A stretch of DNA of 21,276 nucleotides from a virus: the UHGV virus genome UHGV-0185283. One strand, given 5' to 3'. The first letter of the stretch is position 1; every line of letters starts with the position of its first letter. Below the pieces are notes generated by a model that ran no database searches, was not told the DNA's origin, and was given only the letters and a program-made list of their open reading frames with translations. Both the position numbers and the translations under genes were made by a program. Positions 2,174 to 6,315 of the stretch are shown here, in pieces.

Positions 2174-2337
2174 GTAGCACCAATCATAACTATCTGTTTT
2201 AGCAAGCATTAACCGCATTCACTAAGCTATAGTTGATGGCACAAACAGAAAGTTGATGCATGATGTTGCCATATATATGTCACAAATACGGCACAACGAT
2301 CTTCAAACATATAGCCACACATTCACAGAAGAGCACA

Positions 2338-2365
2338 AAGCCTTGCAATCCAGTGCAAAGCTTTG
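2338..2365 (-). terminator. Hairpin downstream of the acyltransferase gene (possible terminator or RNA-stabilising element)
   Basis: AAAGCCTTGCA-atccag-TGCAAAGCTTT, 11-bp arms with one mismatch, about 30 nt past the acyltransferase stop; no clean U-tract. Confidence 0.3.
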
Positions 2366-2396
2366 TTTGTCTCAGTTTTGCTTCACTTCCTAGGCT

Positions 2397-3521
2397 CTAC
2401 TTTAGTCGCAATTTTTCGATCAGCTTTTTCCCTATGATGACGCTTGGTTTCTCTATATAATTAAACATGATTAGTGAAAGAAAGTATGCAGACATAAGAT
2501 CAGTTAGGAACTTTGCCCATCCTGGATTTTTAGGATACCACGGTATATCCGAACCATATTTTGCAAAAAATAATCCGACAGGAATATGTATTAGATAAAT
2601 AGAGTAAGACAGATCACCAAGATGGCAAAGAAATCTAGGAAAACCGATATCATGCCGACTCTCTATAATAACAAGGCCAACAAAAAGAAATGAAGCAATC
2701 ATCCCCCCATTCATAACACCGTGACCTGACTTATACTGAGTCAACAATGCTGACAATGAATAGATGACAAAAGAAACAGCAATTATTCCAATTGTATTTT
2801 TTTTGTAACTATCTTTTCTTATTGCAATATACGCTTCTGCAAGCAAAACACCTATAATAAAATCAAACACTATAGGGTTGATTATAAATTTAGCGTGGTC
2901 TATTAATCTTTTTGTTTCACCTACTGAAACAGTATAGGGGTCAAGAGTTATTACTCCAGAGAAAATCAACTGCCCAAAAATAACAACAGATGTTATGGTA
3001 ACTACAGTTAAAAGTGCTCTATACTTATGACTTACCATTAGACACATCATAAATACAAAGTAAAAATAAACCTCATATATCAATGTCCAGGAGGGATACA
3101 ATAACCCATAGCCATAAAACGGGCCTTGCTGACTCATATCAGAAGTTATAAACAGGTATGATTTCAAGATATCTTTCCAGTCAAACCATGTTTGAGGGAA
3201 TGACATTATTGAGAAGTCAAAAAATACACCCATCAGCAATAAAGATAATGCAATTAAATATACTGGGTAAATCCTGAACAATCTTTTTATAAAGAAAGCA
3301 ATAGGCGTATTTTCAATTCTATTTTTAGTTGAATAAACAATGATAAATCCACTAATTATAAAAAATAAATCTACGCCAAAAGCGCCATTCATGAAGAGGA
3401 GATCACCAAGATTTGCCTGAGCATACACTCCATTCAGGCTGGTACGGTAGTGGAAACCAACCACCATAAGAGCCGCAATGCCTCGCATAACCTGAATGGA
3501 GTTTAGTTTTAGTTGAGCCAT
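2397..3521 (-). CDS. Integral-membrane acyltransferase, acyltransferase-3 (OafA/Oac-like) family; putative O-antigen acetyltransferase for lysogenic conversion
   Basis: 374-aa polytopic hydrophobic protein; N-terminus MAQLKLNSIQVMRGIAALMVVGFHY is typical of the acyltransferase-3 family; no C-terminal SGNH domain; very AT-rich; sits tailspike-proximal at the prophage end as oac does in Sf6. Confidence 0.75.
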   Translation of the reverse strand: MAQLKLNSIQVMRGIAALMVVGFHYRTSLNGVYAQANLGDLLFMNGAFGVDLFFIISGFIIVYSTKNRIENTPIAFFIKRLFRIYPVYLIALSLLLMGVFFDFSIMSFPQTWFDWKDILKSYLFITSDMSQQGPFYGYGLLYPSWTLIYEVYFYFVFMMCLMVSHKYRALLTVVTITSVVIFGQLIFSGVITLDPYTVSVGETKRLIDHAKFIINPIVFDFIIGVLLAEAYIAIRKDSYKKNTIGIIAVSFVIYSLSALLTQYKSGHGVMNGGMIASFLFVGLVIIESRHDIGFPRFLCHLGDLSYSIYLIHIPVGLFFAKYGSDIPWYPKNPGWAKFLTDLMSAYFLSLIMFNYIEKPSVIIGKKLIEKLRLK

Positions 3522-3550
3522 TTTCGTCTAGTTCATCAGTTTTTTCAGCA

Positions 3551-3578
3551 AATATAACACACATCAAAACTGAATCAA
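3551..3578 (-). promoter_or_regulatory. Candidate sigma70 promoter for the acyltransferase gene
   Basis: Minus strand TTGATT (-35), 16-nt spacer, TGT-TATATT (extended -10), about 30 nt upstream of the ATG at 3521, in the 102-bp gap after the tailspike stop. Confidence 0.3.
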
Positions 3579-3623
3579 TAGCATTGACATTATAAAAATG
3601 GCTGCATTTTTATGATTAATACA

Positions 3624-5933
3624 CTAAATAGCAGCAATTATAAAGCATAATAATTCATCATACCTGATGCTATATCTGCTTCCAGATGCAATATATGGTT
3701 GTTTGACTGTTAATGTTCCATGTTCATCTCTTTCTACAATCTCAGGAGATTCATCCCATTCATCATAACAAAACAGCGCGTAAGAATGAGGGTCTAGATT
3801 TTCCGATAAGAATGCATCTCTTACATCTTGAGCAATCACACCAATATGAATCCTTGCATTATTTCCTTTTTTTAACACAGAGTCATTTAACTTATATTTT
3901 TTTAGTAACCGTTTTATTTTTAAAGCCACACGTTTCTCAGCATCATCAAGCCACTCCTCCTGTTGCTTTAAGCATTTGTCAGATGAAACAATAGGTGATA
4001 CGGTGAAATAACTTGAATTTATTCTCCTGCTTGCAGCTCCAAAATCCTGTGTGCCATCAGTACCGGGTGATAAATAACCGCGAGTAGTCATCTCCCATGA
4101 CTGACCGAGTACGTCGGAGTTATTGATCTTCAGGTTATTAAAAGAAAGATTGGCAGATGCACCTGCGCCATCATAAGCAATAAGATTCGAACTTATCGAT
4201 GCAGCTATAAAGTTAACCCCGGTATCATAAGAGAATCTGTATTCCGGCCCAGATGCAAGCTGCGGATTACCTGCCCTTAACTCATGAAAGTTTTCCCTGA
4301 TACCGAACGCGGTGATGTTCGACTCTAACCCACCTGTTATTGCACGTTCTGACAATTTCGTTGGAGCATACGATCCTCCTAACGTTATAAGATCATTATC
4401 TGATTCAAACACGGAATAACAAGCTGCTTGATATACATGTTGAGTACCAGCATTAGGTTTGTAGTTGGTGTTGTTTTTTATCACACCACCTTCAATTACA
4501 GTAGCCTGTATAAACTTCCCTGCCTTTAAACCATAGCAGATGTTGTTTTCTATTTTTAACCCTGAAATACCAGATACACATATGAAATGGTTTGCTGGAT
4601 TTGTGGCCACGTTATTTGTGATAGTAACAATAGGTACGTATCCGCGCCCCTCATAGTCTTTGTTATACAGCAAAGAATACGGAGTACCAAGGCAATCATT
4701 GACTTTATTACTATCAATAAGCCGGTTTCCGCCACCGGTACCAAGACCAAAAAGAATACCACTATTCACACTTCCATCATGTGTTGTGTTAATTATATCT
4801 CCCGCAGATGATTCAACCCCATTATAGGAAACGTTAGTATAACAATCACGGATTACTATATTAAACATTGCGCTATAAACGTTCATGTTTAGCGCATTAA
4901 ATCGTGCGTTAGTACTGGTTACGCTATCGAATAACGCATCACGGTTGTTGGCGTTACGAGAGAACCAGTATACTTGCTCACCTTCAAATCCGTCTATGTG
5001 AACGCCTTTAACTGTAAAGCGAGAGCAGTTCCATGCAGCTATACCCTTCCGGTTTACCTGGTTAACCAGATCGCTATTGTTTGGAGTTCCTGACCAGTAT
5101 CCTTGTATTCTACCATTACCAGTTACTGAGTAGCAGAATCCATCGTTGCCTGCGAATACAACACCGCCGAACTCGATAAATCCTCGTTCATCCCCAGACT
5201 GCGTTCCAGCGGCAGTGTTAGGCCATCCTGATTTTGCAGGTGCAGGCACCATTCCAGTGCATTCAACCAATCCGTTAACAATCCAATGGACGTTATTTAC
5301 TCCGTATGCAGTGAATCGACCATTGGATTTAATGACTCCACCATTCTCTACGAGAATAATCCTGTCTCCCGGGATTGTGATATCAACATTACCGATGATT
5401 TCAATCGTTGTTCCAGATGGAATTCTTACACTACCTGAATTCACCGCAGCCTGAAATGTTTGTGCGTCGGTGTATCCTGGCTCTCTGAACTCTTCGATAG
5501 TTCTTATTGTAGTGTGTAGGAATTGGGTTAAATCGTCATAACCAGGGTATCCTATATAATCTGCCCCATTGCCAGAAGAAAGTCTCCGTTCTAACTGATC
5601 AGGGTCATACTTCAGCACGTTTGGGAAATAGAACTGCTGCACCCCATAAGCATCGTAAACAGCCATCGAATGACCTTGCACGGTAACGAATTTGGCAATC
5701 TGTCCGTTATATACAGGATATCCAGCAGCGTTAATGATGATTGGCTGCGAAACAGGAACGTGAGAGCCGTCTTCGTTCTCCACATAAACCTGAATCTGGT
5801 TTTCAGGATTTACAGGGTCAGTATCAATTTTACCGATATAAATTTTGCCATTGGCTACAGCTTTAAAAGAACGCGCCATAGTGAAGAGTTGCGAAGGCAT
5901 GCTTACCACAACATTTGCGGTGATATCTGACAT
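3624..5933 (-). CDS. Tailspike protein: P22 gp9-like N-terminal head-binding domain, divergent central beta-helix-type receptor-binding domain, C-terminal intramolecular-chaperone (peptidase S74-like) domain
   Basis: Residues 1-100 from [13 protein letters not shown]...NVLKYDPDQ are near-identical to the remembered P22 tailspike N-terminus. The central region is Gly/Asn/Ser/Thr-rich and does not resemble P22 endorhamnosidase. The C-terminal ~120 aa ([20 protein letters not shown]...[14 protein letters not shown]) resemble autocleaving chaperone domains. Start placed at the internal Met matching P22, with GGAG 7 nt upstream. Confidence 0.85.
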
Positions 5934-6054
5934 TTCATTGCTCCAGACGAATGATATGATGCAACCATGATGTGATTGCATACCGAAATGGTACTATTGA
6001 GTATTTATCCAGTAGGTTACGATGCCATTCCACCCAACTGGTGAGGCATCAAGG

Positions 6055-6315
6055 ATGTACAGCAAATACGACGAGGCGCAGTTTCACTTGAGACTTCCGC
6101 ATGAACTCCACGCGAAAATTAAGCAGCGTGCGAAGATGAATAACAGGTCGCTGAACTCAGAGATAATTGCAGCGATTGAAGAATCATTGGCTAAACAAAG
6201 CTCTGCATCAGTTTACATTGACGATGCAGAGCGTATGGCAGAACAACAATCTGATATGGTTAAGAAAATTGTCTTTGATACGCTCAAAGAGCTATATAAA
6301 AAAGACAGCAGCTAA
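6055..6315 (+). CDS. mnt: Mnt-like ribbon-helix-helix (Arc/MetJ family) repressor
   Basis: C-terminal two-thirds aligns with remembered P22 Mnt (NNRSLNSEII..., AERMAEQQSDMVKKIVFDTLKELYKK versus AERLADEQSELVKKMVFDTLKDLYKK); the N-terminal beta-strand residues differ. Divergent from the tailspike; start chosen at MYSKYDE with GAGG upstream (ORF-track start 6022 is an alternative). Confidence 0.7.
   Translation: MYSKYDEAQFHLRLPHELHAKIKQRAKMNNRSLNSEIIAAIEESLAKQSSASVYIDDAERMAEQQSDMVKKIVFDTLKELYKKDSS

Follow-up and report, generated by a model that had tools for sequence, protein, structure and literature searches.

The gene at positions 3624..5933 of the virus genome UHGV-0185283, of which we analyzed a stretch of 21,276 nucleotides (the window), is best explained as the tailspike gene of a P22-like (Lederbergvirus-type) prophage residing beside ykgJ/yagU in the Escherichia coli chromosome; for this reading as a whole we estimate a probability of about 0.75. 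The open reading frame (ORF) is intact and on the minus strand, and it codes for a precursor of 769 amino acids and 83.9 kDa. From the N-terminus on, this precursor comprises a P22-type head-binding domain, a short linker, a central domain predicted to be a right-handed beta-helix, a C-terminal stem and a Peptidase_S74 intramolecular chaperone (Table 1). Tailspike architecture and modular exchange are textbook knowledge, and our understanding of tailspikes is unchanged. New are the placement on the minus strand, the exact module boundaries, the Ser651/Lys656 dyad and the fold of the centre, and in addition a 3.1-kb cassette of spike and acyltransferase which is common to P22-like prophages, epsilon15-like prophages and Salmonella, and a testable serogroup prediction.

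Results and Discussion

The head-binding domain and the site of module exchange

Positions 1 to ~2309 of the window are E. coli chromosome (yagU, ykgJ) and the remainder is a P22-like prophage. With Lederbergvirus genomes, e.g., CUS-3, Sf101, and vB_EcoP-720R6, the window shows an identity of 93-96%, and the spike gene is flanked by the P22 virion genes gp16, gp20, gp7, gp14, gp26, and gp10 as well as by mnt. Upstream of the spike we find the families P22_gp16, Inj_translocase (gp20), P22_gp7, DUF2824, and Phage_stabilise, with the spike at the end of the P22-type virion block.

The N-terminal part matches the Pfam profile PF09008 (Head_binding) with residues 1-113 over all 113 profile positions (E=5.2e-67, 223.6 bits at a cutoff of 24) and ends with the sequence KYDPDQ. 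Among the PDB chains it matches Sf6 gp14 (9e-64) and P22 gp9, with E values ranging from 1e-44 to 9e-64. An initial annotation, made by a model from the letters alone, had recognized the domain and its KYDPDQ end correctly and had described it as near-identical to P22 gp9; this was too strong, the identity to P22 chains being ~72-75%, compared with ~90% for Sf6 and CUS-3 and as much as 94% for P22-like phages of E. coli. In the monomer model described below the head-binding part is poor, with a predicted local distance difference test score (pLDDT) <50 at residues 1-47, because few of the aligned sequences contained this part.

A search with the whole tailspike gene in 5,426 complete E. coli genomes found it in none of them. 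Partial matches were obtained in 1,134 genomes, overwhelmingly to the head-binding end alone, and among the matches listed these head-binding matches cover ~1954/1970-2310 of the query, i.e., window positions 5577/5593-5933. Eight genomes match the remainder of the gene alone. The DNA matches of the receptor part begin at 5567 and are joined to a different N-terminus in other prophages. As the head-binding matches end at ~5577-5593 and the receptor matches begin at 5567, the junction has to be placed in codons 114-122, just past KYDPDQ. The module swap at the linker that the initial annotation had supposed is directly supported by these match limits.

The AT-rich shift past the head-binding domain, which had been noted together with the swap, exists and is modest. 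The GC content drops from 0.44 in the head-binding part to 0.41 in residues 122-769 (0.50 in the rest of the prophage), and at third codon positions (GC3) from 0.44 to 0.33. The change is gradual with no step at the linker, reaches its minimum in the chaperone (GC 0.345, GC3 0.24) and carries on into the following acyltransferase gene.

A cassette of receptor domain and acyltransferase

The next gene encodes a member of the Acyltransferase-3 family and matches PF01757 with residues 7-351 (E=3.7e-28) and PHROG 3333, "O-acetyltransferase" (E=2e-75). It is the final prophage gene before the host junction, and in all prophage loci examined, be it in E. coli or in Salmonella, it comes after the spike. 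Its nearest homologue in phage records is uncharacterized and just 35% identical (Salmonella phages S.Inf 5-2, SI8, and SF6). With 0.345 its GC content is the lowest in the region. Two E. coli prophage types and Salmonella have inherited it together with the receptor domain.

The cassette formed by spike residues 123-769 and the acyltransferase has 95% DNA identity to a different, epsilon15/phiV10-like prophage at yfgI, in which the gene order is tailspike, acyltransferase, holin, holin, GH19, and Rz-like. In the epsilon15/phiV10-like prophages the DNA for receptor domain, stem, chaperone and acyltransferase is 82-96% identical to the window, whereas the P22 head-binding domain is replaced by an unrelated N-terminal anchor of ~220 residues and the virion and lysis modules differ as well. 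The equivalent prophage in E. coli strain E28 (DSM 103246) is inducible and excises spontaneously (PMC5454188); this relative of the cassette thus resides in a working phage.

A homologue from Salmonella enterica (83% identity) and one from Citrobacter (87%) both keep the P22 head-binding domain, and the Salmonella enterica homologue has the same acyltransferase neighbor downstream. More distant copies with ~60% identity are carried on Tail_spike_N anchors in a multi-spike myovirus-like locus and on another N-terminus in a siphovirus-like lytic phage; one copy has a T7 tail-fibre N-terminus. Judged by these comparisons the receptor domain and the acyltransferase move jointly as a recombination cassette between phage types. 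The initial annotation had missed that the acyltransferase belongs to the swapped unit, as it had missed the minus strand and the precedent for the whole design in CUS-3.

The likely glycan target

For the question of the target, which the initial annotation had left open, we surveyed the 5,426 complete E. coli genomes with their eight carriers of the receptor domain. The wzx-wzy region of O123/O186 is present in 10 of the 5,426 genomes, and four of these ten are among the eight carriers (hypergeometric P=4e-10). The four hold three distinct receptor alleles. A 2023 preprint ties one prophage tailspike cluster to E. coli O123 and O186 and to Salmonella O58, which have a shared backbone (PMC10370184). 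O123 and O186 are cross-reacting antigens whose gene clusters have 98-99.9% identity (PMC4732683), and according to the title of a paper listed in PMC7685785 the O123 and O58 polysaccharides contain N-acylated 4-amino-4,6-dideoxyglucose. The descriptions of O123/O58 in these sources name amino- and deoxy-sugars and no uronic acid (PMC10370184, PMC7685785), which makes a lyase mechanism appear unlikely and a hydrolase more likely. The likeliest target is therefore, at roughly even odds or somewhat better, the O-antigen of E. coli O123/O186, related to that of Salmonella O58. The glycan target is still a prediction; what can now be inferred is a likely serogroup.

Some points weigh against this assignment. 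The link to O123/O186 was drawn from carrier genomes other than the host of the window, the present family is only a candidate for the tailspike cluster of the preprint, and a flank search showed that the carrier CS6L has a different, rare O-antigen cluster which is not found in the other carriers. It is conceivable, if somewhat unlikely, that a spike of the same architecture is directed at a substrate other than O123/O186, be it another O-antigen, a group 4 (O-antigen) capsule or another surface glycan, and that the enrichment reflects the shared ecology or ancestry of chicken-associated strains. Besides the different cluster in CS6L, this explanation can draw on the absence of the O123/O186 cluster from four of the eight carrier genomes. 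One of these four does not differ in its spike protein from an O123/O186 strain, and a second gave identical match statistics. Moreover, all carriers with a recorded source come from chicken or poultry meat, and the ugd-his flank is 100% identical in five of the ten O123/O186 genomes, which are therefore not independent. The enrichment with its three distinct alleles leads us to retain O123/O186 as the preferred target.

The CS6L cluster is complete in 2 of the 5,426 genomes, and CS6L has the most divergent receptor allele (1744525-1757709, NZ_CP158447.1). Nevertheless, CS6L and an O123/O186 strain have the same wzzB protein, and the CS6L ugd-his flank ranks as the seventh closest. This would fit a lineage that was once O123-like and has had its O-antigen replaced. 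In the same strain the colanic-acid locus is broken by IS1 and galF has an internal stop.

Predicted fold of the central domain

Residues 114-650 gave nothing usable in Pfam (E up to 10), PHROGs, and NCBIfam, and a phmmer search against all PDB chains matched only the two end modules and nothing between residues ~136 and ~550, in agreement with the earlier statement that the sequence past the linker is unrelated to the P22 endorhamnosidase. When residues 122-769 were compared by tblastn with 50,697 phage records, matches were confined to the last ~210 residues, the chaperone included. No characterized tailspike matches over the full length. The noted richness in Gly, Asn, Ser, and Thr could be confirmed as well: together these account for 37.6% of residues 123-650 (G 12.1, N 10.0, S 8.1, T 7.4).

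An AlphaFold2 model of the monomer, based on 37 homologues, folds as a right-handed beta-helix, as had been suspected, and has a pLDDT >90 over most of residues ~150-510; the mean pLDDT of a model of the domain alone is 82.6. The entries of a fold search included the Klebsiella K1 lyase (31.5), the PfbA adhesin (31.4), GH110 galactosidases (about 30-31), and phi29 gp12 (29.7), followed at 27-29 by PL6 lyases, GH28 enzymes, 9NA, HK620, and the Det7-like and CBA120 spikes, all of them at 9-17% identity. A Foldseek search of BFVD with the domain-only model returned no viral predicted structure with more than 16% identity. The predicted fold of residues ~123-520 is clearly a right-handed beta-helix and at this level belongs to the pectin-lyase-like class; the fold matches do not single out an enzyme class.

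The corresponding sequence family is small: of 1.84 billion cluster representatives, 54 belong to it at E<=1e-3. By sequence search no member has a solved structure, and the central domain is unnamed in curated libraries. A profile built from 50 of its members detects known beta-helix proteins via the N-terminal cap only (PfbA with 2.7e-9, GH55, the Sf6 spike, AlgE4, and phi29 gp12; E values 3e-9 to 3e-5). Some of the distant relatives do have direct matches, namely to PF13229 (Beta_helix) in 14 of 50 cases and to PF12708 in 11 of 50, and in some to NosD. Across the 50 distant relatives R206, R250, N349, N351, E374, and N409 are invariant and E254, E319, W237, W280, K296, and Y322 nearly so. 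The best-conserved segment of the receptor domain is residues 251-400, and the conservation persists to ~25% identity. From the alignment, we read the conserved residues as the putative sugar-binding and catalytic core.

A point against an enzymatic function is that the fold search, with hits at 10-15% identity throughout, does not separate hydrolase, lyase, epimerase, and pure binder. The beta-helix could accordingly bind the glycan without cutting its backbone, either as a pure adhesin or as an esterase/deacetylase that removes a substituent. We consider this unlikely, since E254, E319, and E374 are kept together with many conserved aromatic residues down to ~25% identity with a peak at 251-400, the pattern expected of a conserved active site. 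To our knowledge, the characterized P22-like tailspikes (P22, Sf6, HK620, CUS-3) are all enzymes, which we also count against it. We thus continue to regard the domain as a presumed depolymerase.

In the alignment of residues 122-769 some alleles are mosaic inside the receptor domain. Allele P0007 shows 78-84% identity at residues 122-400 and 98% at 401-650, and P0008 has the opposite pattern with 90-93% followed by 69-74%. This implies recombination inside the beta-helix in addition to that at the linker.

The stem and the predicted self-cleaving chaperone

The monomer model places beta-strands of the stem at residues 564-623, and its confidence is low for 519-548 and 627-648. An alignment with the pre-cleavage stems of 6eu4, 7y5s, 9vvr, T5 pb1, and endoNF covers residues ~611-650. 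The following module of 119 residues, of which the initial annotation had given the approximate size and the likeness to a chaperone, is modelled with a pLDDT of 75-93, and a profile search of the isolated C-terminus found PF13884 (Peptidase_S74) at residues 651-708 with 29.0 bits at a cutoff of 22. The segment 611-769 aligns to five solved self-cleaving chaperone domains at E values between 9e-18 and 1.6e-10, i.e., 6eu4 (Acinetobacter phage AS12 gp42), 7y5s, 9vvr, 3gw6 (endoNF), and 4uw8 (T5 pb1); 3gud, the GA-1 neck appendage chain, is shorter and covers residues 677-761. In the features that could be compared, the head-binding domain and the chaperone both conform to their sequence families.

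In the phmmer alignment Ser651 falls on position 911 of 3gw6, which is Ala in this chain, and Lys656 on Lys916. We take the 3gw6 chain to be the S911A cleavage-site mutant of endoNF. Neither residue varies in 37 homologues with identities of 32-98%. From the behavior of the family we predict cleavage between Ser650 and Ser651, which would convert the 83.9-kDa precursor into products of 70.1 and 13.8 kDa. That the module instead stays uncleaved and serves the mature spike for structure or binding seems highly improbable. In favor of this alternative, the full-length PF13884 scan scores 24.9 bits, just above the threshold of 22; against it, the Ser and Lys stand in register with the endoNF dyad, are conserved as described and are embedded in an end-to-end alignment with the five solved self-cleaving relatives.

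Comparison with known systems

The closest precedent is the endosialidase tailspike of the Lederbergvirus CUS-3 of E. coli K1, which has the same plan of P22-type head-binding domain, depolymerase, and Peptidase_S74. Its head-binding part is 90% identical over residues 1-125, KYDPDQL included, its chaperone has the motif S-D-x-x-L-K, and the spike occupies the corresponding position in a prophage of this kind, with the neuO repeat region annotated immediately downstream in the record. The gene neuO is known to encode the K1 capsule O-acetyltransferase. The two spikes differ in the middle, which is a beta-propeller endosialidase specific for the K1 capsule in CUS-3 (PF12217, PF12219) and a beta-helix without profile match in the window. 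The chaperones are 28% identical, and the acyltransferase of the window is an AT3-family membrane protein in contrast to NeuO of CUS-3.

Unlike the spike of the window, P22 gp9, Sf6 gp14, and HK620 gp9 have an interdigitated or beta-sandwich C-terminus without S74 chaperone, and their beta-helices have no detectable sequence similarity to that of the window beyond the N-terminal cap. EndoNF of phage K1F, T5 pb1, and GA-1 gp12 possess the homologous C-terminal module after a trimeric stem with the Ser-Lys dyad in register; the identity is ~20-30%, and the domains upstream of the chaperone are unrelated. The combination of PF09008 and PF13884 is found in many other E. coli database proteins.

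A model for the function of the spike and the cassette

We propose that residues 1-113 fasten the spike trimer to the tail hub, as suggested by the ~90% identity to the domains of Sf6 and CUS-3, for which there are solved structures or experimental characterization. The beta-helix of residues ~123-520 would bind the surface polysaccharide and probably cut it, which would let the virion work down to the outer membrane. Residues 651-769 may act as an intramolecular chaperone that helps to fold and trimerize the C-terminal stem and then cuts itself off at Ser650/Ser651 by means of Ser651 and Lys656, leaving a mature spike of 70 kDa. The substrate would most likely be the E. coli O123/O186 O-antigen and the enzyme a hydrolase rather than a lyase.

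In the lysogen the acyltransferase is probably expressed and could acetylate the same O-antigen, so that related phages would lose its use. Precedents for such O-antigen masking are Oac of Sf6 and Oac of phiV10. The receptor domain and the acyltransferase would travel as one recombination cassette between phage types. Carried to its end, the model describes a "recognise-and-mask" cassette, in which the spike would recognize specifically the O123-type O-antigen in its unmodified form and the acyltransferase would modify that antigen and could separate O123 from O186, making the cassette a mobile seroconversion determinant across unrelated phage types and across E. coli and Salmonella; in this full form we hold the proposal to be speculative and distinctly unlikely.

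If the predicted specificity is true, the O-antigen of O123/O186/Salmonella O58, a glycan with unusual N-acylated amino-deoxy sugars, would have its first assignable depolymerase. The spike might then serve as a serogroup-specific detection or typing reagent or as an exchangeable receptor module in phage engineering. That receptor domain and acyltransferase are transferred together across two prophage types and two genera is a clear case of how recognition and masking of a glycan can be inherited as a unit.

Translation start and genomic context

Table 1. Features of the tailspike gene and of its surroundings in the window
Feature	Coordinates	Strand	Basis or remark
Tailspike coding sequence with stop	3624..5933	minus	ORF list, Pfam architecture, 9 public contigs with identical protein, 769-residue homologues
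Shine-Dalgarno sequence GGAG	5941..5944	minus	8 nt before ATG at 5933; read from sequence
P22-type head-binding (virion anchor) domain, residues 1-113	5595..5933	minus	PF09008; PDB sequence matches; CUS-3 alignment
Linker/recombination junction LERRLSSGN, residues 114-122	5568..5594	minus	DNA match limits; junction DNA and protein alignments
Predicted right-handed parallel beta-helix, receptor-binding/presumed depolymerase domain, residues 123 to ~520	4374..5567	minus	
C-terminal stem, residues 521-650, ending at predicted cleavage site S650/S651	3984..4373	minus	Model strands and stem alignments
Peptidase_S74 intramolecular chaperone, residues 651-769 (119 residues, 13.8 kDa), with stop	3624..3983	minus	PF13884, structural-chain alignments, model
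SDKCLK motif with predicted catalytic dyad Ser651 (codon 3981-3983) and Lys656 (3966-3968)	3966..3983	minus	endoNF alignment
Acyltransferase-3 family gene, 374 residues, presumed O-antigen O-acetyltransferase	2397..3521	minus	PF01757, PHROG 3333; directly 3' of tailspike
3.1-kb cassette, spike residues 123-769 and acyltransferase	2437..5567	minus	Common to epsilon15/phiV10-like prophages
Terminator-like hairpin, 13-bp stem	2335..2366	minus	31 nt past acyltransferase stop, at prophage/host boundary; consensus scan, pattern match only

The longest mechanical ORF reaches an in-frame ATG at 5981 (5934-5981, minus strand), which would add 16 residues. This extension has no homologue support, and the ATG at 5981 lies upstream of the Shine-Dalgarno sequence. 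We prefer the start at 5933 because GGAG stands 8 nt upstream of it and the full-length homologues have 769 residues. Automatic gene callers may over-extend the tailspike gene on account of the ATG at 5981.

The spike protein is identical on nine public contigs; the Acyl_transf_3 gene is next to it in four of the four places displayed, and beyond the acyltransferase three different gene sets are found, so that the identical spike resides in at least three genomic contexts. We also considered whether the gene is a pseudogene or a remnant and rejected this, as the ORF is of full length, identical on nine contigs and has all motifs intact.

The sole gene separating gp16 from the tailspike (6022-6315, plus strand) codes for a Mnt-type repressor with Arc and Repressor_Mnt domains. 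The genes arc and ant, which are present at the mnt position in CUS-3 and in Salmonella relatives, are absent here, and the immI region looks reduced. A promoter scan yielded 14 matches compared with 14.9 expected by chance and supports no promoter.

The boundary between prophage and host lies at ~2310-2400 beside ykgJ: the identity to the host stops near 2309-2380 and phage identity to Sf101/JEP4 is found from 2328 on, with the hairpin at 2335-2366 falling in the zone where the two overlap. No tRNA gene is present at the integration site or anywhere in the window. At this integration site other E. coli genomes have an integrase adjoining ykgJ.

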